From positions 1 through 54,922 of the IMG/VR virus record IMGVR_UViG_3300049259_000054: a DNA stretch of 54,922 nt; one strand, 5' to 3'. Source of the DNA: a virus (Duplodnaviria > Caudoviricetes). Position numbers and translations under genes: made by a program. How positions within the stretch are numbered: position 1 is the stretch's first letter; each line of letters begins with the position of its first letter. Below the pieces are notes generated by a model. It was not told the DNA's origin. It searched no databases and was given only the letters and a program-made list of their open reading frames with translations. Below are positions 3,699-52,167 of the stretch, piece after piece.

Positions 3699-4847
3699 TC
3701 ATCCTAACACCTTCTCTTGCTTACGTGCAAGTACCGATGCCCAGGCGTCCCACCACCGCCACGCCTGCCGCCCGTAGGTGTATTTGCTCATCAGCTCTCG
3801 GTTGGTCCCGCTGATGTGTTCCCGCAGGGTCTTGGATTTCCGCAGCCCGGACAGGTGCCGGTGCCAACGTTGCGGGGTGTTGGCGACCCGCAATTTCATG
3901 TCCAGGGATGCTGCCATCCGTAGGTTATCCGGTGTGGGTGAGGCGACGGTGGGGACGCCGAGCGCCATCAACTCGCACACCTTAAGCGCCGATTTCGCCC
4001 GGTTGAAGTGGGAGTCGGCGAGTGGGACGATCCCTATCCCGACCTTAGCGACGTTTTCGGCGTAGTGGTCGAACGGTACCCATCCGGTGGCGTCGATCCG
4101 GTCGCATTCGTATTTGATACTGTGCCAGATGCCGTTCTCGTCTCTGCGGCCGGGTGGTTTCAGGTCGAGTTTCCGGTGCGCCCGGTCGGCTGCACACAGC
4201 CCGAGACCTTCACACACTTTCACGCCGGTGCCGATCACGCGGATAGGCCCGCCGTACCGTCCGACGACCCCGCCGGTGACCTGAAGATCATTAGGGTGTG
4301 TGCCGACCTCCCCAGGCCATCCGATTTGATCCGAGTCAACGTGCGGTATCGAAAGATACCACGCCGGTACGCAGTTGGGTAGGACTGCGGTGTGCCGGTT
4401 GCCCAGCCTGCTCGCCAACGCTGGAGTTGTCACCGTCACCAGGTCCGCCATCTGACATGCTTGCATCGTGTACCGGTAATGCGACAGTGAGTTCGGTTGG
4501 TTGAACTGGGTATACGCTGCATTGCCCGGTTCGATCGCCATCAGGTCGTCATCCATATCGACCACAACCCGGATGCCGTAGGCTTGCAGCCGTTTGATGA
4601 TCTCGATCCAGTATTGCCCTTGTGGGCGTTGCAACACGATCACGTCGGCTTCCGGCTTGTCCATGTCTACGACTTGGGCGCCGGTGTCCAGTGGCGATCG
4701 GTCCCATTTGCGGTCCCACAGGATGGTTGGACCGGTGTAGTCCAGGATGGCGTCGTCGTTGCCGGCGTTATTGAGTGCTTGGACCGGCCAGATGGTCCGG
4801 TACGATCCGGATGCCACGGTGTCGCAGGGCCAGACTCGGACGATCAT
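3699..4847 (-). CDS. Glycosyltransferase (GT-B/GT4-like)
   Basis: YR-x-x-WP, DVIVLQRP, VVVDMDDD, ADLVTVTTPAL, LPNCV, IGIVPLADSHFNRAKSALKVCELMALGVPTVAS. Confidence 0.85.
   Translation of the reverse strand: MIVRVWPCDTVASGSYRTIWPVQALNNAGNDDAILDYTGPTILWDRKWDRSPLDTGAQVVDMDKPEADVIVLQRPQGQYWIEIIKRLQAYGIRVVVDMDDDLMAIEPGNAAYTQFNQPNSLSHYRYTMQACQMADLVTVTTPALASRLGNRHTAVLPNCVPAWYLSIPHVDSDQIGWPGEVGTHPNDLQVTGGVVGRYGGPIRVIGTGVKVCEGLGLCAADRAHRKLDLKPPGRRDENGIWHSIKYECDRIDATGWVPFDHYAENVAKVGIGIVPLADSHFNRAKSALKVCELMALGVPTVASPTPDNLRMAASLDMKLRVANTPQRWHRHLSGLRKSKTLREHISGTNRELMSKYTYGRQAWRWWDAWASVLARKQEKVLG
3716..3731. promoter_or_regulatory. Palindromic operator copy at the 3' end of the GT gene
   Basis: cttgc ttacgt gcaag. 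Confidence 0.6.
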
Positions 4848-5038: not shown

Positions 5039-7369
5039 TTACTCTCCGTAGTCGAGCTTGCCCTGCTCGTTCACTATCGGTGATATGCCCTTCAACCCGA
5101 ATTTCGGCCGTGAATTCGAAAACCTCATCTTGGTCTTCGGCTTCTCCACAGCGTATCCTAGGTCTGCACTCCAGACCTTGATGGCTTCTGTCAACTTGGG
5201 CACGGAGAGTGAGTGTCGACCGTGTCCGGTGCACCAATCTTGGTGCACCTGCATCATCGCCTCATTTGACATCTTGCCGTCTGCGGTGAGTGTGAAACAG
5301 GAATCCAGAGACTCCGTCACCCAATCCTCGTCATGTTGGTACTGTTGCCCTTCTGCCCGGATCGAGGCCGGTACCTGCAACCCCTTTCCGGACCATTCCT
5401 GCGCACCCGCGACAGCCCACCGTAAGATGCCCGGCCCCTCTTCCCCCACTAGCTTTTGTGCCAGGTTGTTGATCCGGTGTGCCTCGTCCGGCTTCTCCGC
5501 TTGGAACGGCACCAGGATCAACCTCCTGAACAGTGCCGGGTCTCCCGCCTTCACCCGCGGCTTGTGGTTCCCCGACACCCACAGCTTGAACTGCGGGTAG
5601 AAGTCGAACGGGTTCTGACGCATCATGTTCGCCTGGACCTTCTCCCCCGATACGTAGCCCTTGATCCGGCTGACCGCGAACGACCCGCCTTCCTCGGTCT
5701 CGGTGTGGGTGGCCATCCGTTTCCCCCTAAGTACCGCTAGGATCGACTGATGCGAGGAGGATCCGGTCTTATTCTCCAGCAGCAGCTCCCGGTTCATCAC
5801 CGAATGTCCGGGGCCTAAGATCCGCCCCAGGACGTCCACGAAGGTGGATTTGCCGGTGCCGGGGCGGCCGTACAGGAAGAAGAACACCTGCTCCCCGGTG
5901 TCACCGGTGAGTGTGTACCCGGCGGCGCGTTGCAAGAACTCCTTCACCTCCAGGTCGCCTCGGGCGGCCCAATCCAGGAACCGTTCCCATTGCGGTGCTA
6001 CAGCGTCCGGATCCCAATCGATCCCAGTCCGCCAGGTGATCAGATCGCTGCGATCGTGCGGTTTCAAAACACCGGTCGCAAGGTCGAGGGTGCCGTTGCC
6101 GACGCTGATCCTGTGCGGGTCCGAATCCAGCTTTTCAGTTTCGGCTACTACCCGCGGGTCGGTCCGCGCCAGGGTGATCATCGCGGTGATGGCCCTGGCG
6201 CTTTGGGTTTTGATCCCGTGCATCGCGACCTTCTTGATCTGGTCGTCGTCCTTCACGTCTTGAGCTTCTTCCCAAATCCCCCGGGCGGTGTCCTTCGCCA
6301 GCTCTTGGATCCGGCCGGTGGCGTCTTCCCGCCAGATCGCACCATCCCAGACCAACGGCCCGACCCCCGGGACGAACCGGATGTCTTCCCCGTGTTTCGC
6401 GACCAGCCGTAGGGCGTTGCCGTCGTCGGTCAACCGGTAGATGATCTTACCGGAGTGGGTTTGGAACTCTTCAGATTTGCCGGGCTCGAACTGGGCGTAG
6501 GCGCGGATCAGCTTCTCTTCGCACACCTCCCATTCGAAGGTGTTCCCGTCTGGCTGCTCGAGCGCCCCCCAGACCGCTTTCACCTTCTGGGTGGCTTGCG
6601 GCAGCGGGATGTTCTTACTGCGCAACCCGCAACAGTACGCCCAAACCAGCTCGTCGCGGCCCCCCGCTTCGATCTGCCCGCCGACCGATAGCAGCCGGTC
6701 GACATCCGCGACCACCGATTTGAAATAGGCGCCGGATTCCCGGTCGGTCGGTCCCGCCGGTGTCTGCAGTTTCTGTAAGATCCAGCCGGGCAGCGGCGCG
6801 ATGCCTTCGGGGCCGCCGGATTTCGTGACGTATTCGACGCCGGATTCGTGTCCGCTGGGCGGGAGGATGACGTACCCGCCGTTGGCGCGGGTGTCGATCC
6901 CGTTTCCGAGTGAGATCCTTTTGCTCTTCCCGGAGGTGTTGCGCATGTCGGTGTCTTTCGGCGCCCGGTACCACAGGTGCTGCCCGCGGGTGCCTTCATG
7001 CTCCCCGGTGAGTACGGTCCAGGTCTCGACCCGGCCGTAGTCCCGTTCCAGGGCCTTCCAGGTGAGTTCACCGCCGTGGTCAGGGTCCACATCGACCACG
7101 ACCATGCCGGCGGTGGATGCGCCGATGTTCGCGTCTGGCCACATCTTGTACCAGATCTGGATTTGGGCTTCGTCGCGGGTGGCGTCCTTAAACCCGTTCT
7201 TGGTGCGCGGGTGTTTCCCGATGTTGATGCAGTCCGCCCGGGCGCAGCTGCATTTGACCCCGTCCCGCCCAAACATCGGGGTGTGCAGCGGGAAGATGTC
7301 GACACCTGCTTGGGCGTATGCCAGCGCGGCGGTCAGCTTACGTTGCGGGTCTATTGGTTCCAATCTCAT
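5039..7369 (-). CDS. Bifunctional primase-polymerase fused to P4/D5-like SF3 helicase
   Basis: N-terminal IFPLH, CSC-x3-C-x3-GKHP, ANIG, VVDVD, HLWY, GIDTRANGGYVILPPS; D5_N-like TDDGNA; Walker A GRPGTGKST; NHKP and RRLILVPF. Confidence 0.92.
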   Translation of the reverse strand: MRLEPIDPQRKLTAALAYAQAGVDIFPLHTPMFGRDGVKCSCARADCINIGKHPRTKNGFKDATRDEAQIQIWYKMWPDANIGASTAGMVVVDVDPDHGGELTWKALERDYGRVETWTVLTGEHEGTRGQHLWYRAPKDTDMRNTSGKSKRISLGNGIDTRANGGYVILPPSGHESGVEYVTKSGGPEGIAPLPGWILQKLQTPAGPTDRESGAYFKSVVADVDRLLSVGGQIEAGGRDELVWAYCCGLRSKNIPLPQATQKVKAVWGALEQPDGNTFEWEVCEEKLIRAYAQFEPGKSEEFQTHSGKIIYRLTDDGNALRLVAKHGEDIRFVPGVGPLVWDGAIWREDATGRIQELAKDTARGIWEEAQDVKDDDQIKKVAMHGIKTQSARAITAMITLARTDPRVVAETEKLDSDPHRISVGNGTLDLATGVLKPHDRSDLITWRTGIDWDPDAVAPQWERFLDWAARGDLEVKEFLQRAAGYTLTGDTGEQVFFFLYGRPGTGKSTFVDVLGRILGPGHSVMNRELLLENKTGSSSHQSILAVLRGKRMATHTETEEGGSFAVSRIKGYVSGEKVQANMMRQNPFDFYPQFKLWVSGNHKPRVKAGDPALFRRLILVPFQAEKPDEAHRINNLAQKLVGEEGPGILRWAVAGAQEWSGKGLQVPASIRAEGQQYQHDEDWVTESLDSCFTLTADGKMSNEAMMQVHQDWCTGHGRHSLSVPKLTEAIKVWSADLGYAVEKPKTKMRFSNSRPKFGLKGISPIVNEQGKLDYGE

Positions 7370-9185: not shown

Positions 9186-10067
9186 TCAGGTGATTTGCTC
9201 ACGCGCAAGCAGGGCGCGCCGAATACCCTCTTCCAACGACACCTCAGGCGTGTAGAACTGCAGCATTTTACTGTTGTCCGACACCCGGTAATGTACCCCG
9301 GCTGGTTTCTCCGGCAGGTATTTGATGGCGTCAGGGTCGTACCCGGCCGCCTCGATCACCAACTCCGCCAGTTCCCTGAACGAGGTGCCGACGCCGGATC
9401 CCAGATTGACCGGACCCGGCAACCTCCGTTCAACTGCAGCCAGGGTCGCACCGACGATGTCGTCAATGTGGATCCAGTCCCGCGTCTGGGTGCCGTCGCC
9501 CCAAACCTCGAACGGGTCAGCCTTCCGGTGTGCCCGGTCGATGAACGATGGGAACGGGTAGTCTAAGGCTTGGTCTTCGCCGTACCCGCTGAACGGCCGG
9601 ACGATCGTCACGTTCGGGACGTATTGGGCGAGCATCTCACCGGTGAGCTTCGCCCAACCGTAGGTCATGTCCGGGTTCATGATGTTGTCCAATTCGATAT
9701 CTACCTCCCGCAGTCGACGGTGGAGTGGGTACTCTTGCAACTCTGTCGGGTATGCGGCGGAGGAGGAGAAATAGACGATCCGGCCGGGTTCAGTCCGTAC
9801 CGCCCAGTTGAACATCTCCGCGTCGATCGACAGGTCCACCGCCAACGACAGCGGGTCCCCTTCGATCTGGGTCCGGCCGCCGACCACCGCGGCGCAGTGG
9901 ATCACCAAATCAAACCGGTCGTTATTCCACCGGAAGAAACCTCGAACATCCGACGGCGCTATCGGATCGGCGATATCAATCCGCCAGATCTCATGTCCGG
10001 CCGCGGTCAACACCGCATCGAAGTGGCGCCCGACGAACCCGGCCGATCCGGTAATTAGGACCCTCAC
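9186..10067 (-). CDS. NAD-dependent nucleotide-sugar epimerase/dehydratase
   Basis: VLITGSAGFVG, HCAA, YFSSSAAY, YGWAK, WGDGTQTRDWIHIDD; GTGA-coupled start at 10067. Confidence 0.92.
   Translation of the reverse strand: MRVLITGSAGFVGRHFDAVLTAAGHEIWRIDIADPIAPSDVRGFFRWNNDRFDLVIHCAAVVGGRTQIEGDPLSLAVDLSIDAEMFNWAVRTEPGRIVYFSSSAAYPTELQEYPLHRRLREVDIELDNIMNPDMTYGWAKLTGEMLAQYVPNVTIVRPFSGYGEDQALDYPFPSFIDRAHRKADPFEVWGDGTQTRDWIHIDDIVGATLAAVERRLPGPVNLGSGVGTSFRELAELVIEAAGYDPDAIKYLPEKPAGVHYRVSDNSKMLQFYTPEVSLEEGIRRALLAREQIT
9194..9209 (-). promoter_or_regulatory. Operator plus promoter (TTGCGC-17-TAGGAT) for the AAA ATPase/SSB genes
   Basis: tttgc tcacgc gcaag. Confidence 0.75.
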
Positions 10068-10660
10068 GGCCGCACCGCCAGCACGACTTGGAACATCGAA
10101 ACGTAGTGGTGGTCGATCACTTCGAACCCGCCCTGTTCGATCAGATCGATGTAGCCCGGCTTGTCCCACGCCCAAGTGTGGAATGGGTAGGCGCCACCTT
10201 CGGTCTCATTCCATGGGCTGGATGCGACCAGGGTGTCGGCGCCGATCGAGCGGACGAACGCGTGCGGGTCGACCAGGTGCTCCAACACCTCGGTGGCGAC
10301 GGCACAGAACGCCTTCCCCGGTTGAGGCCAGTTGACCGGTTTCGCGACGACGTCTTGCAGATAGATCTCGATACCGCGGTTACGCTGGGCGGCGTCGACG
10401 TTGGTCTGCTGCAGGTCGTACCCGATCCGGTCGACCTTCAGATCCTCAAGCAGCGACAGTAAGCCGCCGTCACCTGCGCCCAGATCGACGACGGTGCGGA
10501 AGCCGCGGGACCAGCAGGCGACGTGAATCATCTCCGACGCGAGGATGAGCCGCTCTCGATGGCCGGGCTGTTCCAGGTGGGGGGCGGTTTCCCGCTGCGC
10601 GTACCAGCCGGGTGTGGTCCATTCCGGCGCGGCGCCCTGGAACAGTTTAACCTCAGCCAC
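10064..10660 (-). CDS. Class I SAM-dependent methyltransferase
   Basis: VVDLGAGDG, GYDL, ATEVLEHLVDP. Confidence 0.88.
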   Translation of the reverse strand: MAEVKLFQGAAPEWTTPGWYAQRETAPHLEQPGHRERLILASEMIHVACWSRGFRTVVDLGAGDGGLLSLLEDLKVDRIGYDLQQTNVDAAQRNRGIEIYLQDVVAKPVNWPQPGKAFCAVATEVLEHLVDPHAFVRSIGADTLVASSPWNETEGGAYPFHTWAWDKPGYIDLIEQGGFEVIDHHYVSMFQVVLAVRP

Positions 10661-11318
10661 GGATTTTCTCCACATCGTGTGCGAGTTGGGTCGCCAGATA
10701 CCGGTTAAACACGGCTCGGTCCGATTCGTACAGCGCAGGTGCGTTCACCTCGGTATACCCGGCGTCGATTTGGGCCTTCCCGGCGGATGGGTGCAGATGT
10801 TCGATGATAACATCGGGAAGATAGTGGATCGAGTCGATCCCACGTCCCAGCGCCAACCAGAAATCATCCAGGTACAGGTGCACCGCACCGGGCGGGACCA
10901 TGTACCCGATCTTTCGGATGATATCTGAGGTCATGAACACCGCGGTGGGTAGGTCCGCACCGCGGAACAGATCATTGCCGTAGGCGATCCCGGTGTTCTG
11001 CAGCGCCTCTCCTATTTTTTCGTCCCACCGGGCGGTGGAGGGCAGGTGGTCATCCCCCATGAAGCCGATGATGTCGTACTGCTCGGCGAGTTTCGGTGCC
11101 AGGTGATTCAAGGTACCACCGAGTCGGAGCCGGGGGCCGACTTGCCAGAACACCCGATCTCGGACCACGTCGTGCCTATACGTGTAGAACTGTGGGTCGT
11201 CGGTGTCGATGCAGATGTGCAGGTCGGCGGACAGCGACGTGTTCAGGAAGAACGGGATCAAACGTTCGATCGAGGCGGGTCTGCCGCGACTGGGTACGAT
11301 GACGGCGATGCTCATCAA
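10653..11318 (-). CDS. Glycosyltransferase (GT-A/GT2-like)
   Basis: IAVIVPSRGRP, GFMGDDH, HLYLDD, IIEHLHP. Confidence 0.85.
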   Translation of the reverse strand: MMSIAVIVPSRGRPASIERLIPFFLNTSLSADLHICIDTDDPQFYTYRHDVVRDRVFWQVGPRLRLGGTLNHLAPKLAEQYDIIGFMGDDHLPSTARWDEKIGEALQNTGIAYGNDLFRGADLPTAVFMTSDIIRKIGYMVPPGAVHLYLDDFWLALGRGIDSIHYLPDVIIEHLHPSAGKAQIDAGYTEVNAPALYESDRAVFNRYLATQLAHDVEKIRG

Positions 11319-11914
11319 ACATCCCTCCGTTTAGTCCAGGGGCGGCCGGAGGTGTGCCCGCCGTGTCCATGCCAGGTCCAGGTTATCTGCGGGCAGTGGC
11401 TGAACTTGGCGCCGCCGTGTAGCATCGCGACCCAGGTTGCCCAATCCTCGCAGGGGTTTTCTGGGTCCGACCAGGTGAACGACTGAAACCCTCCCACTGC
11501 CCGTAACAACGAGACACGCACAAGGCAGGTTATGGGTATGAAGTTGCCGACGTTGCAGATGTAGTCGCGCAGTTCGTCATCGAATGGCCGCCCGAGTGGC
11601 TTCCAGGGCCACAGGTTCTGGTTGATCCCTTCATACCAGGGGTAGACCAGGTCGGCGTCGGTGTCTTTCTGCCAATCCTCCAGGACTTGCAGGTGTTGCG
11701 GCAACAGCTCGTCGTCGTCATCCAGGAAGGCGACAAAATCAGTATCAACGAGTTTCAACGCCCGGTTGCGGCATTCGGCGGCGCCTAGCCCGTCGTGGTC
11801 GTGCTGCACGATGACGTCGTCCGGTGCCCTCGTCTGGTTCCGGACAGACTCTAAGGCCCGGACCAGCATCTTGGCGCGGGGCGGGATGGTCGGTATTACG
11901 ACGGTGATTGTCAC
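11315..11914 (-). CDS. Glycosyltransferase family 2
   Basis: ITVVIPT, ALESVRNQT, RNRAL, VAFLDDDD, VGGF, EDW. Confidence 0.9.
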   Translation of the reverse strand: MTITVVIPTIPPRAKMLVRALESVRNQTRAPDDVIVQHDHDGLGAAECRNRALKLVDTDFVAFLDDDDELLPQHLQVLEDWQKDTDADLVYPWYEGINQNLWPWKPLGRPFDDELRDYICNVGNFIPITCLVRVSLLRAVGGFQSFTWSDPENPCEDWATWVAMLHGGAKFSHCPQITWTWHGHGGHTSGRPWTKRRDV

Positions 11915-41832: not shown

Positions 41833-41994
41833 TCACCCCTGCCTGAGGTCGTGCACCTTTCCGCCCAAAGCCGACAGTTCTCGGTCGTTCATCTGGGCGA
41901 CGATGCGCGGTACCTGTAGGACGGTGAAATACCGCCCTGCGGTAAATGATACCACCGCGACCGGTATCAAAACTAGCACAAACCAGACCCACAT
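41833..41994 (-). CDS. Small membrane protein (53 aa, not in the ORF track)
   Basis: TGATG-coupled to the terminase; begins MWVWFVLVLIPVAVVSF. Confidence 0.6.
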   Translation of the reverse strand: MWVWFVLVLIPVAVVSFTAGRYFTVLQVPRIVAQMNDRELSALGGKVHDLRQG

Positions 41995-43364
41995 CAGTTC
42001 CACCCCCCTGGTTCTGGCAGCCCGAACAGGGCATGCTCGATCACTTTCTGCTCTTCATTGACCGCATGCGGGACCTCATAGTCCGGCTTCGGTCTGGCCG
42101 GCCCCGCCCAAGTCATCACGGTCTTCCGTTCGACCTCGGACAGTTCGGTCAAGGCCCACACCAGAGCGTCAACCCGATCTGGTGATTTATCCCCGGGGGT
42201 GTAGGTGCACATCTGGTCCTCCAGGTCGGTGAACACCTCCGCATGCCACACCTTCTTCTGTTCATACAGGGATGCGATCGGCTCCGCCCGGGTGATCTTC
42301 CCGCGGGACGCCCGCACCGCCCTATATGGGATTTCCGGGTCGATCGAGCGGATCAAGGACTCCACCAGGTCCCCACCGTTGTTGACCTCAGCGACCATCC
42401 GATCCCCGTGCAGGAATTTGAACGTCGAGACGGCGCGCTTCCCCCATTCCGCCGATACCAGCCGGTCCGATTTGTCCCGCAGGATGATGTACCCGGCGTC
42501 GTCAGGCAGCCGGCCGGCGGCAATTATCCCAGTCTCATCCGAATCTTCTCCGGCGGTGACGGCCGGGTCGATCGCCACCACCACCCGTTCGAATGCGGGG
42601 GCGGCGGAGTCGGCCGGCCAATATTGGATCAGATCGCGTTGCCACAGCGCACCCTCGATGTCATCCAGCAGCTGCCCCTCCAACTCCTGCCTGCCCAACC
42701 GGGTCCCTTCGTACCGGCGGCGGAGTTCCTGCAACGCCACCGCAGACAGGTTATCGGCGTTGTCGAAGGTCGACCCGCGGGTGATCTTGACTGATCCGTC
42801 TTTGCGGCTGAACAGGTCCCGGACCAGTTTAGTCGGGCGGGGGGTGGTGGTGACAACGATCTGGGACGCGCCCAACCGGACGGCCGGGACCAACCCTTCG
42901 TACCAGGTTTCTTCGCGGCGCCAGGAGCCCAACTCGTCACACCAAGCGCCCCACAGGTTGTGTCCGCGGGCTCGTTCTGGCTGATCCGCCGAGATCATGT
43001 AGATCACGGAGCCGTTGTAGAATCTGATCTCACCCAGTGTCCGGTTGTACCCGCCGTCTCCGATCTCGCCGGGTATCGCCGCTTTCAAGATCCCGGATTC
43101 GCCTTCTACACAGATCCGGCGGACGTCGGAGTAGGTGGGGGCGAACACCCCCCAGGCGGACCCCGGGTGGGTTGCGGCCTGTTCGGTGATCCAACCGGCG
43201 CCGGTGAAGGTCTTCCCAAACCCGCGGCCTGCCATGATCAACCAAATGTTCCAGGGGACGTCTGGCGGGAATTGCGCCGGCCGCCCTTTCTGACGCCATG
43301 TCCGCTGCCGGGTGGGTTCTTCCATCCGATCGGCGAGCCGGCCGGCGAATTCGTCCCACCTCAT
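41994..43364 (-). CDS. Terminase large subunit
   Basis: AGRGFGKT, AWCDEL, TTTP, GTRLGRQELEG, VAIDPA, AEVNNGGD, SPDRVDA. Confidence 0.96.
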   Translation of the reverse strand: MRWDEFAGRLADRMEEPTRQRTWRQKGRPAQFPPDVPWNIWLIMAGRGFGKTFTGAGWITEQAATHPGSAWGVFAPTYSDVRRICVEGESGILKAAIPGEIGDGGYNRTLGEIRFYNGSVIYMISADQPERARGHNLWGAWCDELGSWRREETWYEGLVPAVRLGASQIVVTTTPRPTKLVRDLFSRKDGSVKITRGSTFDNADNLSAVALQELRRRYEGTRLGRQELEGQLLDDIEGALWQRDLIQYWPADSAAPAFERVVVAIDPAVTAGEDSDETGIIAAGRLPDDAGYIILRDKSDRLVSAEWGKRAVSTFKFLHGDRMVAEVNNGGDLVESLIRSIDPEIPYRAVRASRGKITRAEPIASLYEQKKVWHAEVFTDLEDQMCTYTPGDKSPDRVDALVWALTELSEVERKTVMTWAGPARPKPDYEVPHAVNEEQKVIEHALFGLPEPGGWN

Positions 43365-43960
43365 CGTACGTTCGGTTTGTCGGCTCGGCGGGATTGGACT
43401 CGAAGTACGTGGGCGAATTCGCCGCGGACCGCGGTCTGTTGGATGTGGTTAAGACCCGCTTGGATCAACGCGGTGGTTAGCGCCCGATCGACCAGGTCGA
43501 TCTGCGCCTCCGATACTTTGGCGAGCCGTTCGTCGATATTCAGCTTGGCGATGGTGGCGAGAGTGGCGACGCAGCGGTCCAGCGCCCGCTCGTATAGCGC
43601 CACTTCGGAACGGAGTTGTTCGGTGCCGACGTCGGACATGTACCGGGAGTCGCCGGCCTTCACCAGCGCGCGGGCCTTCGCGGCGAACAGGTCCTTAACC
43701 TCGGTGACCTCCGCCGACACTTCCGCCAACGCGGTCAGCGGGTTATCGACGACAATGTCGGGCTTGTAGTCCGACACAACCGCCACGACCTGCTGCTCCA
43801 CCGCATTCTGCTTAGCCATCTTCCGGGACCCACCGGCATGGACGTTACATTTGTCAATACCATGCATCGGCGGGTTCTTGCAGGGCGTGCCGGAGCGTTT
43901 ATTGATGTAGTGGCAGTACGGTTTTCCGGATCCTTCTGCCGGCGGCTGCTCCCACTTCAT
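43361..43960 (-). CDS. Terminase small subunit
   Basis: Upstream of TerL; C...C...C-x2-HAGG N-terminal motif; leaderless after TAAACT. Confidence 0.8.
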   Translation of the reverse strand: MKWEQPPAEGSGKPYCHYINKRSGTPCKNPPMHGIDKCNVHAGGSRKMAKQNAVEQQVVAVVSDYKPDIVVDNPLTALAEVSAEVTEVKDLFAAKARALVKAGDSRYMSDVGTEQLRSEVALYERALDRCVATLATIAKLNIDERLAKVSEAQIDLVDRALTTALIQAGLNHIQQTAVRGEFAHVLRVQSRRADKPNVR

Positions 43961-44003
43961 CCTCTCAGTTTACCCGGCTCAGGCGCAAGGTGCCAGGTAT
44001 GGC

Positions 44004-44039
44004 GCGGCCCCGACGCGTCAGGGGTGTCGTCGGGGCCGC
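44004..44039. terminator. Stem-loop ending the purZ operon
   Basis: gcggccccgacg...cgtcggggccgc. Confidence 0.7.
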
Positions 44040-44054
44040 TGGACAGTTGGCTTC

Positions 44055-45023
44055 TTAACTGCCGGATGAACCGAACCCGTTGCTGCCGCGGGCGTGGCTG
44101 GTCAACTCTTTCGCCCACACCGGGGTTAGGCCGCGGGTGCTGTTTTCCAGGATGATCAACTGGGCGAGCCGTTCGCCGACTCCAACCTTCACCGGTTCGT
44201 CGGTCATGTTCTGTACTCCTGCGTATAGCTCGCCGCGGTAGCCGCAGTCTATGATACCAGGGTTGACCAGGAGCCCGCGCTTCCGGAGGGTGGAAGACCG
44301 CCCGACCAAGAATCCCCAGGTGTGGGCTGGCAGTTGGACGGCGATCCCGCAGTGGATGTCGACGAAGCTGCGTGGCGGCACTGCCGCAGCTTCAGACACG
44401 TACAGGTCCAGGCCGGCGTCGTCCGGGTGTACCCGGGTGGGGCATTGGACGGTGCCGGATACCATCTGCATCGGCAGCTCGGCTGCAGAGTATTTTTGCT
44501 CGGAGGGCGCCCATGCGGTCCGGTCGCTTTCGGTCTGTGCGATCTTCCCGTATTTGGTGGCGGCCCACCTGGCGGTGTTGGCGATAAGCTCCTCAGCGGC
44601 GGAGTCGGCCGACAATCCGTGGCCGGTCAGGAAGGCCATCGCTGAATAGGCGCCGGTGTGGGACGGCGTGAAGTAACGGATTCGGTCGTCGGATTGCGGC
44701 ATCGCGTAATTCCGGTCGATGTCGATATCGGTCAGGACGGCGCATTTTTGATTGTATTGCAGGGTCCGGTTGATCTCCACCGGTACGCCGTAGGTCGGGA
44801 CGCCCGCCGGCAGGTAGGCGATCAACCCTTCGCATGCCTCTTGGGCGGATAGGTTGATGTCGGCGATGGCGGGTTCCGGACCTTCGGCGTAGATGTTGAA
44901 CGCATGGCCGGGTTCGTACAAGTTTACCTTGTAGGCTGCGGCGGCGGTCCGGATGTGTACCCGAGCATCGATCGACCCTTCCGCCCGGCCTGCGCGGTCG
45001 ATGGGGTGGGCGAAGTAGATCAC
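44055..45023 (-). CDS. Fusion of a nucleoside 2-deoxyribosyltransferase/N-glycosidase-like domain and a trimeric dUTPase-fold dNTP pyrophosphatase
   Basis: N-terminal IYFAHPI...INLSA-x3-C-x-GLIAYL...GVPVEI. C-terminal has all five dUTPase motifs: AGLDL, GRSS, GIIDCGYRGE, RLAQL, RGSNGFGSSG. Confidence 0.85.
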   Translation of the reverse strand: MIYFAHPIDRAGRAEGSIDARVHIRTAAAAYKVNLYEPGHAFNIYAEGPEPAIADINLSAQEACEGLIAYLPAGVPTYGVPVEINRTLQYNQKCAVLTDIDIDRNYAMPQSDDRIRYFTPSHTGAYSAMAFLTGHGLSADSAAEELIANTARWAATKYGKIAQTESDRTAWAPSEQKYSAAELPMQMVSGTVQCPTRVHPDDAGLDLYVSEAAAVPPRSFVDIHCGIAVQLPAHTWGFLVGRSSTLRKRGLLVNPGIIDCGYRGELYAGVQNMTDEPVKVGVGERLAQLIILENSTRGLTPVWAKELTSHARGSNGFGSSGS

Positions 45024-45340
45024 AACCGGACCTCCTCATTGCTTGTAGGCAAGCTTGCTGGTACGCAATCTACCAGGGCGCACAACAGCCCACAAGTACC
45101 CCCGCCGGTCTCCTGCAGGAACGCCGCCAAGCTGTCCCTGGTCGGGTGGTCCCGGTGTAGCTCCTTCGCCGATCCACGGCCCTCCCGCTTATACCGAGTT
45201 TCGAGGCGGTCGAACTCTTCGGCGACGTGCGCTTGGGAGTAGCAGTGTTGCCGGATGGTGGTCCGCTCCTCCGGCTTCACGCTGGCCAGCCGGCGCGCCC
45301 GAGCCCGCACCGCGGGTTTCGAGGCGGCCATTAGACCCAC
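45020..45340 (-). CDS. Hypothetical protein in the purZ operon
   Basis: Coupled ORF between the neighbours. Confidence 0.6.
   Translation of the reverse strand: MGLMAASKPAVRARARRLASVKPEERTTIRQHCYSQAHVAEEFDRLETRYKREGRGSAKELHRDHPTRDSLAAFLQETGGGTCGLLCALVDCVPASLPTSNEEVRL
45038..45069. promoter_or_regulatory. Two abutting operator copies just upstream of the NDT-dUTPase RBS
   Basis: attgc ttgtag gcaag | cttgc tggtac gcaat. Confidence 0.7.
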
Positions 45341-45735
45341 CGACCCGTGTCACGGATCCGCGTCATCATCACCGAATAGACCTCCAGGTCAAATTCGGAA
45401 TCCGGATGTGGTAGTACGCCCTGCTCTAACGCCCCGAAGATCCGCGCCACCTTACCTAAGGCGTAGAACGCAGTGGCGGCATAGCGGCCGTACTGTGCCT
45501 TCTCTTCGTCGGTCGCGCCATCCAACCGGTCCCCCATCATCCCGACCATCGCTTGACCCATCAAGTCCAAATCCGACGCGCCATATTGGATCGCCTTGGG
45601 GGTGGTACGGGAGATAGTGACAGCGGCATGCCTTCCCCACCAGTCCGCGATCTCTCCGACCCTCTCCTCGAACTCGTCGGTCTTAGCCTGTTCCATCCGG
45701 ACGGTCTCCTCTTCGATCTTATGGACGTTGCTCAT
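45331..45735 (-). CDS. All-alpha nucleotide-modification-associated protein (Nmad1/DUF1599 or MazG-like; candidate MazZ equivalent)
   Basis: K-x3-YG, K-x2-R and D-x3-D-x3-Y pattern (KAIQYG; GKVAR; DSEFDLEVYS); ATGA-coupled to purZ. Confidence 0.6.
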   Translation of the reverse strand: MSNVHKIEEETVRMEQAKTDEFEERVGEIADWWGRHAAVTISRTTPKAIQYGASDLDLMGQAMVGMMGDRLDGATDEEKAQYGRYAATAFYALGKVARIFGALEQGVLPHPDSEFDLEVYSVMMTRIRDTGRWV

Positions 45736-46907
45736 CGGCTCATCACTTCCAGGACGGTGCCCGGGCCGGTGCCGATAATTGAGGGGCGAACCCCGCAGTC
45801 GTACTCGACCTGATCCAGCAACGCCCTCAGCTCCTTATGATCGCCCCGGTCGACGTTAATATCACTGAGCCGACCGGTCCACCCACCGACGTCCGGGAGC
45901 TGTTGATCCACCATCGACAACCACACCCGGACCGGTCCTTGATCCGGGCCGCCGTTAGCATCGATCGCGGCGCTGGCAAGCTCCGAGTCCCAACCGCCGA
46001 CCCGGCGGGTCTTGTTAGTGACGGTGGTTTTCTCTGCCGGTAAGCCGAGCTCCTCCCAGCTGGTTTCGTCCTTCAACGGGCCGGAGTTGCCGGCAACCCG
46101 GATCGGATAGACCCGCAAGACCACCCAGACTTCCAACCAGCCGGGGGTGACGGTCCAGGGGTTGATTCCTGCCATGGCCAGGAAGTCGATCGCCCGGCAG
46201 TCCGAGGAGGTCACTTGCGGGTAGTGTTGGGTGTGCAACCCGAGCCCGTAACCTTGGGTGCCTTCCAGGATGACGTGTGCGTTGCGGTGGGTCAGGTCGT
46301 TGTTCAGTATCGCGGCGGTATCGTCGCAGAATGCGACACCGCGGTCGGCCAGCGCCTGTATCGGGTCGGTGTTCGACACCGGCGGATACCCGAACGCGTC
46401 GTTGGCGGATTCCGCAGCTCGGCGGGCCTGCCAACCGTTCATCGCGTCCCGCACGGTGAAGGCGGTGCGCATCGCCCGTGCGGCACGTGCGGCGCCGACC
46501 CCCTTACTGGTGGATCCGATCCGCTCGGTCAACTTCACCTCCTGTTCGGTGTCTTTCTCCGCTGAGGTGATCAGGGTCGCTGCAGTGTCCACGATCAGCC
46601 GTTGCCCGACGTCCAGGCCGGCGTCGTCCAACGCGACCACTTCGTTCGCCAGGACTTGCAGGTCGATCTCCGACCCTGCGCCGATGGTCAGGCTAGCGTC
46701 GGGGCGCCCGACAGCGATCACAGGCACCTGCCGAAGCGCCCACTTGCGACCTTCGCTGTCATAGGCGGTGTGCCCGGCGTTGGGGCCGGCGACCCTGACT
46801 CCGACGATCCTCTGGTGTTTGCTGGTGCGGGCGAGGTAGGCGGCGCAGGCGCCTTTCGCTTCCGAGCCGTACTGGCCGCCGACGACCACCGTAAGCTTGC
46901 TCATCAT
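45732..46907 (-). CDS. purZ: PurZ-family 2-aminodeoxyadenylosuccinate synthase, probably the GTP-using PurZ0 type
   Basis: PurA fold with GGQYGSEAKG (Ser where PurA has the catalytic Asp, GDEGKG), GPNAGHT, IGST-x-KGVG, EGTQG, RVYPIRVAGNSGP, TTVT-x3-RRV, SMVD, GTGP. Confidence 0.9.
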   Translation of the reverse strand: MMSKLTVVVGGQYGSEAKGACAAYLARTSKHQRIVGVRVAGPNAGHTAYDSEGRKWALRQVPVIAVGRPDASLTIGAGSEIDLQVLANEVVALDDAGLDVGQRLIVDTAATLITSAEKDTEQEVKLTERIGSTSKGVGAARAARAMRTAFTVRDAMNGWQARRAAESANDAFGYPPVSNTDPIQALADRGVAFCDDTAAILNNDLTHRNAHVILEGTQGYGLGLHTQHYPQVTSSDCRAIDFLAMAGINPWTVTPGWLEVWVVLRVYPIRVAGNSGPLKDETSWEELGLPAEKTTVTNKTRRVGGWDSELASAAIDANGGPDQGPVRVWLSMVDQQLPDVGGWTGRLSDINVDRGDHKELRALLDQVEYDCGVRPSIIGTGPGTVLEVMSR

Positions 46908-48459: not shown

Positions 48460-49206
48460 TCAGCCGAGCAGGCGGGTCAGCTCCTCATCCAAGGTGCGAG
48501 GTTCGGTGTTGTTCGCCACCGAATCCAGATAACCCAACTTGGACTCGATCGAACTGATCTCCGACGCCAGCTCGTGCCGCTGCTGGTAGGTCGGCGACAT
48601 CGTCGAGATGCGGGACACCGTCTCACTCAGGGCGACATTGGCCTTCGCCAACTCGTGGGCTATCGCCGCCCAGTCCGACGCGTGTTTAGACGCCGCGTGT
48701 CCGGGGTCAGCACGGCGGGTCTCGTCCAACCGGGCGGTCCGTTCGTTGCTGACCCGGGTGTGTGCCTGCAACGCCACCGCGGCGGTGTCATCGTCCGCCA
48801 TCACTTCCCGGGCGACCTCAGGGTCCTTAAGCGCCTGCTTGACTTGGGTCGCTCGGTCTTGGGCGGAGGATCGCGGTCCGGTGCGTCCTTGGGTAGAATG
48901 TCCGAGCGCCCGGTGTGCCTGAGTGAGAGTCATCCCCGGTCGGATCAGATCCCGGTCGTAGGCCAACACCTCGTGGACCTTCCAGGAGACGCCTTTAACC
49001 CGGCGTTCTGTCGCCCAGGACCGGGCGACGGTGGCGTAGTGCTCCAGCCTCGCCAACTCCACCCCGATCTCACTGGCGTAGGCGGGCAGGTTTTGATTGC
49101 CGATCTCGCGGGCGGCGTCGCCCAAGAACCAGTTGCGCTGACCATCCTTCAAGATACCCATCTGGACCAGCGCAGCCCAACGGGCGGTGCCTGGATGTAC
49201 TGGCAT
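48460..49206 (-). CDS. DUF6192/LmbU-like putative DNA-binding protein
   Basis: WFLGD-x-A-x-EI, YA-x-EIG, Y-x2-VARSW-x3-RR-x2-GVSW-x-VH-x2-LA; AAGGAG RBS. Confidence 0.6.
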   Translation of the reverse strand: MPVHPGTARWAALVQMGILKDGQRNWFLGDAAREIGNQNLPAYASEIGVELARLEHYATVARSWATERRVKGVSWKVHEVLAYDRDLIRPGMTLTQAHRALGHSTQGRTGPRSSAQDRATQVKQALKDPEVAREVMADDDTAAVALQAHTRVSNERTARLDETRRADPGHAASKHASDWAAIAHELAKANVALSETVSRISTMSPTYQQRHELASEISSIESKLGYLDSVANNTEPRTLDEELTRLLG

Positions 49207-49686: not shown

Positions 49687-49940
49687 TCCACCAACTCGTA
49701 AGTCACCCCGAACACTGCCGGGTCGCACGGATAGAACCGATCCTGTTTCGGCTCTCGGATTATCCAGTGGCCGACCGGGACCGGGATGAGCACGCCGTCG
49801 ATCGTGCAGACGCGGAGCCCGTCGAGCTCGGTCGGCCCGTAGATACCGGCAGCGCCGCCCCACCCCCAAACCTCATCGATATTGTCGCCGGTCCATCGCA
49901 CCGCGTCGACCACCACGGGCTTCTTGCGGTATTTGCTCAT
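49683..49940 (-). CDS. Conserved phage protein (YRKKPVV-x-EA/DA family)
   Basis: KYRKKPVVVDAVRW...T-x-DG...G-x-WII...FYPC-x-P-x-VF-x2-TYE. Confidence 0.75.
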   Translation of the reverse strand: MSKYRKKPVVVDAVRWTGDNIDEVWGWGGAAGIYGPTELDGLRVCTIDGVLIPVPVGHWIIREPKQDRFYPCDPAVFGVTYELVE

Positions 49941-52147
49941 TCGCTGTACCCCCAACGCTTCGCATCCAACTCCATGATCGTACCCAGCGCGTCGGTCGCC
50001 AACGCCGCCGCCTCAGCGATCAACAGCTCCACCATCTCCTGTCCGCCATCGCGCGGCAGCAACATCAGCTGTGAGTCGTGTACGGCAAGGAGTAACCCAG
50101 CGCCGCCGATCTTAGCTTCCTTAGACAGGTCCGCCCGCTCCTGCACCCCCCACTCGCCCAGCCGCCGCTCCACCAACAGGTCGATATCCTTCCCTACCTC
50201 GGCAAGGGACCCCTGCACCCGCCTGGAGAATCCCGACCGGTAGTCGTCATACACCTGGAAGTACGACGATTTGCCGTTCGCCAGCCGGACTTTCCGTTGC
50301 CGTTTCACCAACTGCTCGGTGGAATCCAGCGCCGCGGAGAACTCCGGGTATAGCTCGTTCCAACCTCGGACCGACTTCTCCATCTCATACAACGGCACCC
50401 GGATACCGGAATCCGATAGGACCATCTTCTGGACCGTCTCCGCCCCGGCGCCGAACACACAGCTGAAGTTCTCCCGTTTACCGAGCTGTCGGTACAGCTT
50501 CCAATCCGGATGATCCGGATACACCTGGTGCACTTGGGTGGCGGTGTACCCATGCAGGTCCTCCTTCCGCTTCACCATATCTAACATCCGCTTACAGCCG
50601 GCATAATGCGCCGCCAGCCGCAGCTCCGCCTGTGCCAGATCCATCTCCCAAAGGTCCCACCCGGGGCAGAACTGCTGCACCGCCCAAGCGATCAAATTCC
50701 GGGGGGTGGCGAACCCTTGCAACGGGGAGGTACCCTTCCCGATCATCTTGAAATCCGACGGGATCGCCTGCAGATTGACCCGTTCGACCGAGAACCTGCC
50801 GGATTTAACCTGCAACTGCCGGAAATGGGTCCGCAGCCGTTTGTCTTGCGGATTGGTCTTGACGGCGTACCCTTCGTACCACAAGCTGATCGCGGTGGAC
50901 AGGCGGGCGTAGTCGGCCCAAGCTTGGGCGTGCGGCGCACCGTCGTCCACCATCCGGGCGAGAATGTCGGCGGTCAGACTGGGCGCTTGGGTTTTCTCGC
51001 TGACCGCGTAGGGGGTCAACCCGAGGCATTCCACCCCGCGGGCGGTCTGACCGGTGTCGAAGTAGTATTGTTTCGCGCCGGCCTCGGTGGGGGTGAACGG
51101 GAGGGCGGTGGCGATCGCGGCGCGTTTCTGCTTCAACGCCCGGGCGATTTCGAAGGACCTCTCGGCCGGGTAGGGTAGGCCGCGGGTCTCCATCGCGTAC
51201 AGCACCTGCATAACGTCGAACTCCCGGCGAATCCATTCCAGGGTTTTCTTGCGGTGTTGATCACCGAGTCGGTAGATCTTGCGCAGTTGCGCCTGTTCCA
51301 GCCGTTTAGTCTGGTGCGCGTCGGAGGTGGCGTAGGGGTCAATGATCGACCACGGGACCAGGTCGTACCTACCGGGCGGTAGCTTATGCCGGCGCAGGTA
51401 GTTCTTAACCTCAGCCTCGTTGCTGCGTTCCTCCTCCCCCCAAAGCCTGGCGGCGGTCGGTTTCAGGGAGGTGTTCTCCCGGGGGTGCAGCTCCCGGTTG
51501 GTCAACTGGGTGTCCCAGGCGAACTTCGGCAGCAGGTTGACGCCGAGTCCGAATTCGCGATGCCCAGCCCGCATAATCAGGGCGTCGAACAGGGCGTTGT
51601 GGTAGGTGATCCGTCGGGCCGATAACCAGGCGATCAGGTCGGTCCAGGCTGCAGCGTCGAGGTTGTTGGCGTCGCCGAACAGGGTGGTCTGGCCGTCGTC
51701 TTCAGGTTTCCCGGTGACACCTTGGTCGAACGGGTAGGCAACAGCGTGTAGACATCCCGGGTTGTCGCAGTCATAGAACGGCACGTCGAGGTAAACCGCG
51801 TGGGGAGTGGCGACCCGGCGGATGTGTTCGCCAGTCGTGGCGACCACGATATCATCCAGCAGCGCGGTGCAGCCGTCAGCGCCGTGTTGCTGCCAGGCTA
51901 GCGACACTACGGCGACTCGGGCGCCGTCGTCGGTGTGCAGCCCGGACGTTTCGGTGTCCAGTGCTACGGTGCCGTCGATTCGGGCGGGTAGGAAGGCTGG
52001 GTGTTGATCGTAAGGGCGGTCCATCGCCGGGGTATTACCGTGGGCGCGGTAGTGGCAAGGGTCGCCGTCTTGACATGGGCAGGTGGGATCACTGCCGGAG
52101 CAGGGATTGGTTTGCTCGATACTCGATCGGGCACTGATTCTTGGCAT
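49937..52147 (-). CDS. Family A DNA polymerase with 3'-5' exonuclease (candidate DpoZ)
   Basis: ExoI DTETSG, ExoII HNALFD, ExoIII YATSDA; SGRFS-x4-NLQAIP; motif A DLAQAELR; motif B RQLGKRENFSCVFG; motif C VHDS; leaderless ATG at 52147. Confidence 0.93.
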   Translation of the reverse strand: MPRISARSSIEQTNPCSGSDPTCPCQDGDPCHYRAHGNTPAMDRPYDQHPAFLPARIDGTVALDTETSGLHTDDGARVAVVSLAWQQHGADGCTALLDDIVVATTGEHIRRVATPHAVYLDVPFYDCDNPGCLHAVAYPFDQGVTGKPEDDGQTTLFGDANNLDAAAWTDLIAWLSARRITYHNALFDALIMRAGHREFGLGVNLLPKFAWDTQLTNRELHPRENTSLKPTAARLWGEEERSNEAEVKNYLRRHKLPPGRYDLVPWSIIDPYATSDAHQTKRLEQAQLRKIYRLGDQHRKKTLEWIRREFDVMQVLYAMETRGLPYPAERSFEIARALKQKRAAIATALPFTPTEAGAKQYYFDTGQTARGVECLGLTPYAVSEKTQAPSLTADILARMVDDGAPHAQAWADYARLSTAISLWYEGYAVKTNPQDKRLRTHFRQLQVKSGRFSVERVNLQAIPSDFKMIGKGTSPLQGFATPRNLIAWAVQQFCPGWDLWEMDLAQAELRLAAHYAGCKRMLDMVKRKEDLHGYTATQVHQVYPDHPDWKLYRQLGKRENFSCVFGAGAETVQKMVLSDSGIRVPLYEMEKSVRGWNELYPEFSAALDSTEQLVKRQRKVRLANGKSSYFQVYDDYRSGFSRRVQGSLAEVGKDIDLLVERRLGEWGVQERADLSKEAKIGGAGLLLAVHDSQLMLLPRDGGQEMVELLIAEAAALATDALGTIMELDAKRWGYSE

Positions 52148-52167
52148 AGCACATCCTAGCACGTCTG

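Follow-up and report, generated by a model that had tools for sequence, protein, structure and literature searches.

Some phages use 2-aminoadenine (Z) in their DNA in place of adenine. Those of the PurZ type have been described as removing dATP and supplying dGMP for Z by means of DatZ, an HD-domain dATPase, and MazZ or DUF550-DUF5664 pyrophosphatases (acting on dGTP/dATP). In PurZ0-type phages a fusion protein of unrelated fold, DmtZ-DutZ, serves the same ends, but whereas DatZ stops at deoxyadenosine, DmtZ degrades the nucleotide to the free base. Poubanne et al. (Nucleic Acids Res 2026, PMC12884076) purified the fusion of Arthrobacter phage Wayne, its two halves, and the separate proteins of Gordonia phage Ghobes. 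They report that DutZ converts dATP, dGTP, and dUTP to the monophosphates, with apparent kcat values for the Wayne fusion of 5.9, 0.56, and 16.4 per s, respectively, and that DmtZ converts dAMP to adenine, AMP not being a substrate. Transfer of deoxyribose-5-phosphate to the Z base was measured for both the Wayne and the Ghobes proteins; according to these authors, hydrolysis and phosphodeoxyribosyl transfer had not previously been seen in one enzyme of the nucleoside 2'-deoxyribosyltransferase (NDT) superfamily. In their tally of NCBI PurZ0 genomes, all 98 carry dutZ, 85 also have dmtZ, and in 77 of those the two are fused. A bioRxiv preprint of October 2025 (10.1101/2025.10.22.683976) independently linked Wayne-like Z phages with NDT proteins and with dual proteins of the dUTPase/NDT kind.

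Each half of the fusion also has better-known relatives. DmtZ shares its fold and its Tyr/Asp-or-Asn/Glu catalytic arrangement with NDT, DNPH1/Rcl, and MilB, from which the characterised orthologues are reported to differ in acting on dAMP and in combining hydrolase and transferase activities. DutZ has the fold and the five motifs of the canonical trimeric dUTPase (Dut), and its orthologues hydrolyse dUTP, but it forms a separate clade with a different motif II, and the orthologues are reported to accept purine dNTPs.

In this work we analysed IMG/VR virus record IMGVR_UViG_3300049259_000054, a stretch of 54,922 bases (hereafter the window; 63.1% G+C, with 127-base direct terminal repeats), and in it a gene for a two-domain protein that an earlier note, made from the sequence alone and here called the original prediction, had proposed as a replacement for DatZ and MazZ. 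The protein is a divergent new member of the DmtZ-DutZ family. The proposal that its dUTPase fold could turn dATP and dGTP into monophosphates, feeding dGMP to PurZ, matches the activity measured on the Wayne orthologue, and the suggestion that the NDT domain could destroy dAMP or exchange its adenine agrees with the hydrolysis and transfer reported for the orthologues (PMC12884076). The accompanying claim of a new way to purge A does not hold, since the mechanism has been in print since February 2026 and the preprint cited above had already pointed to it.

The locus resembles that of Wayne in domain order, in the flexible linker, and in the catalytic residues of both domains, and in both phages the fusion follows a PurZ0 gene, a DpoZ-1-like polymerase and a primase-polymerase being encoded in the vicinity. 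It differs in that the slot separating purZ0 from the fusion is taken by a DUF5664 gene in Wayne and by an unrelated gene for a 134-residue protein in the window, and in that the window protein has Tyr for the lid Trp and Arg for Gln13, about 42% identity, and a different large terminase in its genome. Ghobes has the same catalytic residues, and gp51, encoded after its purZ0, is homologous to the 134-residue protein; both activities were measured on Ghobes DmtZ and DutZ. Its DmtZ (gp53) and DutZ (gp55) are, however, products of separate genes, and Ghobes DmtZ is reported to hydrolyse dZMP as well.

Results

A divergent DmtZ-DutZ fusion protein

The fusion gene is an intact open reading frame of 322 codons and a stop (Table 1). 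Its GTG start codon has a 4-base overlap with the stop of the preceding reading frame, and GAGGAGG is located 7 nt upstream of the GTG. The G+C content at third codon positions is 78.6%, compared to 63.1% G+C genome-wide, a value that fits a genuine gene of this phage. The original prediction had described an NDT-like N-terminal domain, a linker, and a complete dUTPase fold, and this description was right in every part, as seen from Pfam, AlphaFold2 and Foldseek, profile searches, and alignment. Structure prediction of each domain, which it had proposed as a check, returned an NDT fold for the N-terminal domain, and the full-length model showed two confident domains (predicted local distance difference test (pLDDT) 88.1, predicted template modelling (TM) score 0.54). 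Most 10-residue blocks of the N-terminal domain had pLDDT values above 90 in this model, and the values fell below 50 in the linker at residues 160-173 and 175-178.

A tblastn search found 110 phage records that cover at least 80% of the query, nearly all from Wayne-type Arthrobacter phages, with the best at about 42-43% identity; Wayne gp53 (ALY10777.1) is about 42% identical to the window protein over residues 2-322. The N-terminal domain was found in 116 phage records (105 Arthrobacter, 6 Gordonia, and 5 Streptomyces), and a search with the window PurZ returned equal numbers of records for these three groups. We also compared residues 1-182 with 1.84 billion representative proteins, which gave 179 clusters (50% identity level) at E <= 1e-3. 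Among the best 150 of these, 115 have a dUTPase-like C-terminus, defined as a BLAST match to the window C-terminal domain at E <= 1e-5, and 24 are stand-alone proteins of at most 200 residues. The remainder comprises 8 proteins of 201-360 residues with no detectable dUTPase part and 3 long proteins whose scattered matches are probably spurious.

The N-terminal domain has the fold and catalytic residues of the NDT superfamily

A Pfam scan of the N-terminal ~180 residues alone gave no match even at E 10, and a six-frame search with PF05014 found no match either, so the fold was established by structure prediction and a family profile instead. AlphaFold2, given the family alignment of the N-terminal domain, produced a five-stranded alpha/beta fold (pLDDT 80.1, predicted TM score 0.71). 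The best Foldseek match to this model in the PDB was the nucleoside 2'-deoxyribosyltransferase of Chroococcidiopsis thermalis (E 1.7e-5), and there were 35 matches at E <= 1e-3; others were human and rat DNPH1/Rcl, MilB, and the Trypanosoma, Lactobacillus, and Bacillus transferases. Target-normalised TM scores to NDT, DNPH1, and MilB were 0.59-0.65. A separate alignment of the domain was made from the window protein and the 24 short stand-alone proteins, and the profile of the short-protein family matched PDB sequences of NDT (E 6.6e-7), MilB (6.6e-4), and Rcl (2.5e-3). The top profile match was the D62N variant of the Chroococcidiopsis enzyme, which has Asn at that position, as does DmtZ. Prediction of a homodimer from two copies of residues 1-160 scored 0.22 and 0.24 against a mark of 0.42 and speaks neither for nor against dimerisation.

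Alignment to Ghobes DmtZ paired its Tyr6, Asp12, Pro57, Asn77, and Glu103 with Tyr3, Asp9, Pro38, Asn57, and Glu83 of the window protein. The Tyr of IYFAHP and the Glu of GVPVEI, which the original prediction had picked out, are Tyr3 and Glu83 and thus align with the catalytic Tyr6 and Glu103. The Ghobes variants Y6A, E103A, D12A, and D12R were reported to be inactive and N77D and P57A to be impaired, and Asp12 was proposed to contact the 6-amino group of adenine (PMC12884076). All residues found necessary by this mutagenesis are kept in the window protein, which supports its assignment as a DmtZ. To count conservation we used an alignment of 113 sequences, namely the window protein and 112 fused matches; from the 115 matches, P0071, P0130, and P0149 were excluded, as their alignments start at query residues 30-34. 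The Asp, Pro, and Glu are present in 113/113 sequences, the Tyr in 112/113, and the Asn in 109/113. The N-terminal domain of the window protein carries the NDT-superfamily fold together with the catalytic Tyr, Asn, and Glu.

Two other positions differ from Ghobes DmtZ. Trp124 of that enzyme, proposed to be an active-site lid supplied by the partner subunit (PMC12884076), corresponds to Tyr106, in a column that holds W in 51, V in 31, F in 9, and Y in 6 of the 113 sequences. Because this column is variable across the family, the Trp lid is a trait of the Ghobes model and not of the whole family. Gln13, the modelled phosphate contact, corresponds to Arg10, and Arg is found here in 10 of 113 sequences. 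The uncharged 5'-phosphate pocket of Ghobes DmtZ (Val11, Gln13, Val98, and Gly99) aligns with Ile8, Arg10, Tyr78, and Gly79, and the Gly is invariant.

Loss of the lid Trp, the low identity of the domain to the characterised orthologues (~28-32%), and the missing Pfam match might be taken to mean that the N-terminal domain has decayed to an inactive remnant in this lineage and that DutZ alone works. We give this reading almost no credence, because the protein retains all five residues that matter in the mutants, the fold of the domain is predicted with confidence, and the reading frame is unbroken. It is somewhat easier to imagine that the protein is a DmtZ-DutZ orthologue whose N-terminal domain serves mainly in dZMP synthesis or salvage from the Z base and dAMP, or cleaves dZMP like the Ghobes enzyme: the Pro typical of transferases (Pro38) is invariant, and the substitutions at Tyr106 and Arg10 would fit a different substrate range. 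The chance that this is so is nevertheless small, since hydrolysis was dominant when the Wayne fusion was given dATP, and a source of free Z base in infected cells, namely degraded phage DNA, is only proposed in the same report (PMC12884076).

The C-terminal domain belongs to a separate DutZ clade

Residues 193-321 match the Pfam dUTPase family PF00692 (E 7e-24) and PHROG 135 (E 3.6e-39), and in comparisons of the domain with solved dUTPases the E values reached 1.7e-17. The motif residues D202, D206, R242, S243, S244, D259, G264, Q288, R312, G316, G318, and S319 are invariant in the alignment of 113 sequences. The domain is 65-69% identical to the C-terminal domains of the Arthrobacter phages, 52% identical to the stand-alone enzyme of Microbacterium phage Johann, whose genome has a purZ gene too, and at most 41% identical to the remaining listed dUTPases. 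Johann (MK016497.1) encodes a PurA-like synthetase, a DNA polymerase I, and a primase/polymerase in addition to its stand-alone dUTPase of the DutZ clade. None of the 116 records with the N-terminal domain is from a Microbacterium phage, which fits the tally of PurZ0 genomes without dmtZ given in PMC12884076.

A maximum-likelihood tree was built from 33 dUTPase domains: the window domain, those of four PurZ0 phages, 8 canonical phage dUTPases, and a small sample of 20 metagenomic fused proteins; for the last group, we picked every sixth of the proteins with 260-345 residues among the matches of the N-terminal domain search. Wayne, Ghobes, Hiyaa, Johann, and the 20 metagenomic proteins grouped with the window DutZ in a clade of 25 rows (support 100/99, stem length 1.0), and all 8 canonical phage dUTPases were placed outside it. 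Three positions around motif II, W236, G241, and S244, are specific to the clade when 117 DutZ-clade sequences are compared with the only 8 canonical ones. Motif II reads G-R-S-S in 110-117 of the 117, compared to [PS]-R-S-G in seven canonical sequences and P-R-S-S in the eighth, and 101 of the 117 carry the Trp located five residues upstream. Coming from few canonical sequences, this is an observation and not an explanation of purine acceptance.

The presence of every canonical dUTPase motif would also suit an ordinary housekeeping dUTPase that keeps uracil from entering the phage DNA, with the N-terminal domain as a structural or regulatory appendage that has no role in adenine removal. Public records label the orthologues plain dUTPase, and the orthologues are reported to hydrolyse dUTP efficiently. 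We consider this explanation very unlikely. No catalytic residue of an active NDT-family enzyme is missing from the N-terminal domain, the C-terminal domain sits in a well separated clade of proteins that are fused or come from PurZ0 phages, DmtZ is tied to PurZ in 13/14 metagenomic loci (see below), and the orthologues turn dATP into adenine (PMC12884076).

The fusion gene is part of a purZ operon in a genome without detectable DatZ or MazZ

The minus-strand gene order is purZ, the gene for the 134-residue protein, a gene for a 106-residue protein, and dmtZ-dutZ, and the genes overlap at each junction. The placement of the fusion inside the purZ operon by the original prediction is thus borne out, with the fusion three genes downstream of purZ in an overlapping string on the same strand. 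By sequence, the window PurZ belongs to the PurZ0 subgroup: its match to 7VF6, the structure of PurZ0 from Gordonia phage Archimedes (E 1.7e-78), is far ahead of those to phiVC8 PurZ (1.1e-28) and S-2L PurZ (4.3e-18), and its N-terminal loop, G-S-E-A-K-G, is that of 7VF6. Judged by PMC12884076 and the PurA motif, the Ser of this loop presumably stands at the position of Asp13 of PurA. The 106-residue reading frame had no significant Pfam or PHROG match and no tblastn counterpart in the Wayne, Ghobes, Hiyaa, or Johann loci. In a pairwise comparison, the window polymerase was 37% identical to Wayne gp47 over 704 columns (E 1e-130), and Wayne also has a primase/polymerase/helicase in the same module.

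A six-frame search of the whole record with the Pfam models PF12917, PF13023, PF01966, PF03819, PF04447, and PF18909 found no YfbR-like, HD_3, HD, MazG, DUF550, or DUF5664 domain at E <= 1. The same method recovered the one dUTPase domain, which served as a positive control. This result fits the proposed replacement of DatZ and MazZ; the fusion would do the job of these enzymes but stands outside their families.

Table 1. Features of the window. Positions count from its first base; residues are those of the fusion protein.
Feature	Position	Strand	Remarks
Primase-polymerase/helicase	5039..7369	-	phrog_1156 E 5e-116
Three glycosyltransferase-like genes and one nucleotide-sugar epimerase-like gene	3699-4847, 9186-10175, 10653-11318, 11315-11914	-	Replication region
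Large terminase	41994-43364	-	
G+C-rich 12-bp hairpin	44004..44039	-	15 nt past the dmtZ-dutZ stop, within the 94 bases that separate this gene from the next
dmtZ-dutZ fusion gene	44055..45023	-	Intact open reading frame, 322 residues plus stop
DutZ domain (residues 183-322)	44058..44477	-	dUTPase fold with all five motifs; PF00692, PDB matches, clade
Flexible linker (residues 159-182)	44478..44549	-	Low pLDDT in full-length model
DmtZ domain (residues 1-158)	44550..45023	-	NDT-superfamily fold (AlphaFold2, Foldseek, profile, Ghobes alignment, column counts); key residues Y3, D9, P38, N57, E83; Y106 at lid position
106-residue reading frame	45020..45340	-	Overlaps the 134-residue protein gene and dmtZ-dutZ
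134-residue protein gene	45331..45735	-	Directly after purZ0; homologous to Ghobes gp51, Hiyaa gp68, and Johann gp55 (C-terminal parts)
PurZ0-type 2-aminoadenylosuccinate synthetase (purZ)	45732..46907	-	PF00709 E 2.4e-38; phrog_1211 E 3.9e-90
248-residue protein with DUF6192 match	48460-49206	-	Pfam E 1.4e-8; between purZ and polymerase
Family A DNA polymerase, DpoZ-1-like	49937..52162	-	phrog_17 E 1.5e-70

The fusion is linked to purZ0 in metagenomic loci

A scan of IMG/VR with a dUTPase-motif pattern gave 542 confirmed loci, of which the best 80, with their flanks, were searched for DmtZ, PurZ, the 134-residue protein family, DUF5664, and the polymerase by tblastn. DmtZ and PurZ occurred together in 13 of these 80 loci, DmtZ without PurZ in 1, and PurZ with a DutZ-like gene and without DmtZ in 10; the other 56 had neither. 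The single PurZ-less DmtZ locus is on a 6.2-kb contig whose end falls just upstream, within the gene of the 134-residue family. Judged by the extent of the matches, DmtZ is fused in 12 of the 14 DmtZ loci in this set. The fusion is tightly linked to purZ0 in metagenomes, and it is widespread.

A conserved neighbour gene after purZ0

The gene directly after purZ0 belongs to a family that recurs at this position. Of the 24 loci among the 80 scanned that were counted as PurZ0-type because they bear PurZ, DmtZ, or both, 15 have a member in the interval from purZ to dutZ; PurZ itself is present in 14 of these, and the remaining one is on a contig cut at its end. The family also comes directly after purZ0 in Ghobes (gp51), Hiyaa (the C-terminus of gp68), and Johann (gp55), and members were located at L002:5067-5630, L003:5557-5910, and L005 (Johann):7757-8293. 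DUF5664 was found in only 2 of the same 24 loci, and in Wayne-like phages it (dNTP pyrophosphatase DUF5664-1) occupies the slot of the 134-residue gene. Members share an all-helical region of ~100 residues. Gly131 is invariant across 24 sequences, as are Lys47, Tyr51, Lys95, Arg98, Asp112, Asp116, Tyr120, and Trp133, a set of residues compatible with a role in handling nucleotides or phosphate.

When all 24 members were compared with Pfam, no shared family emerged, and profile searches of PDB sequences returned chance-level helical matches only. The ESM Atlas gave leads below 0.9 only (DUF6378 and DUF1599, in 10-14% of cluster members) and no structural match above a TM score of 0.45. A relationship to DUF5664 was also considered and is unsupported, the hhalign probabilities for two alignments of the family against Wayne gp51 being 0.2% and 0.6%. 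A word search of the main text of PMC12884076 found no mention of the family there. It is possible, if short of probable, that the family is a further, unrecognised component of the PurZ0 pathway; it could be a non-homologous replacement of DUF5664-1 or an accessory factor of PurZ0.

Other features of the genome

The hairpin that follows dmtZ-dutZ is stable: the RNA of 43955-44060 (minus strand) folds with -43.3 kcal/mol (z -3.03; 0/200 shuffles equally stable). The small and large terminase genes come after it, and a role as terminator between the modules for nucleotide metabolism and for packaging is possible. The hairpin has no T-run, which is why a simple terminator scan missed it. That scan of the region around the operon gave 2 promoter-like sites compared to 0.7 expected and 5 terminator-like sites compared to 3.1, none of the latter on the coding strand at gene ends and nothing convincing overall.

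In its large terminase the window most resembles Microcystis phage Mae-JY09 (46.6%), a Desulfofustis phage, and Brevundimonas phages, and the enzyme is not Wayne-like, which places the PurZ0 cassette on a different structural backbone. The purZ0-dmtZ-dutZ cassette thus appears to reside in a phage lineage different from the known Wayne-like or Ghobes-like phages. A DUF6192 match was found in a protein encoded between purZ and the polymerase. The replication region contains three glycosyltransferase-like genes and an epimerase-like gene, with PHROG E values of 6.6e-30 to 7.7e-62; one of the four also matches a family labelled DNA methyltransferase. These genes could serve a second modification, of the DNA or of the cell surface.

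Discussion

Taken together, the fold, the conserved residues, the DutZ clade, and the gene neighbourhood make it very probable that the window protein is a DmtZ-DutZ with the activities of its orthologues, which would purge adenine and supply dGMP in a PurZ0-type Z phage. In this scheme DutZ, presumably a trimer, would cleave pyrophosphate from dATP, dGTP, and dUTP. PurZ0 would condense the resulting dGMP with aspartate, a step towards dZMP and dZTP, and the dAMP would pass to the tethered DmtZ. There Glu83, positioned by Tyr3 and aided by Asn57, would break the glycosidic bond by way of a covalent deoxyribosyl-5-phosphate intermediate. Water would resolve this intermediate to give deoxyribose-5-phosphate and adenine, or a free Z base could accept the sugar phosphate to yield dZMP. 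We infer that fusion of the domains would keep dAMP from being re-phosphorylated. The fusion and the DpoZ-1-like polymerase would then stand in for DatZ and MazZ of PurZ-type phages, and the DNA of this uncultured phage would be expected to contain Z.

Several points weigh against this assignment. The activities were shown on orthologues alone, and the overall identity of the window protein to the assayed Wayne enzyme is only ~42%. Identity in the N-terminal domain is lower still, at only ~28-32%, and the lid and phosphate-contact residues differ, as described above. Substrate range varies even between the characterised enzymes, since the N-terminal domain of Wayne is reported to act on dAMP only and Ghobes DmtZ to cleave dZMP also (PMC12884076). 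The good hydrolysis of dUTP by the orthologues (for Wayne, an apparent kcat of 16.4 per s compared to 5.9 for dATP) implies that the DutZ domain would be an ordinary dUTPase as well. Finally, the absence of DatZ and MazZ is strong but not absolute, given a CheckV completeness of 75% for the record despite its terminal repeats.

The window protein is divergent and comes from a high-G+C phage that is uncultured and differs in its packaging module, and so its sequence helps to define which residues of the family are truly fixed. The 115 fused clusters among the best 150 matches of the N-terminal domain provide metagenomic evidence that the fusion is widespread, and the conserved, unnamed neighbour gene after purZ0 is pointed out here. 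Deoxyribose-5-phosphate transferases are of practical interest for nucleotide synthesis, and natural variants at the lid and phosphate-contact positions may therefore be valuable.

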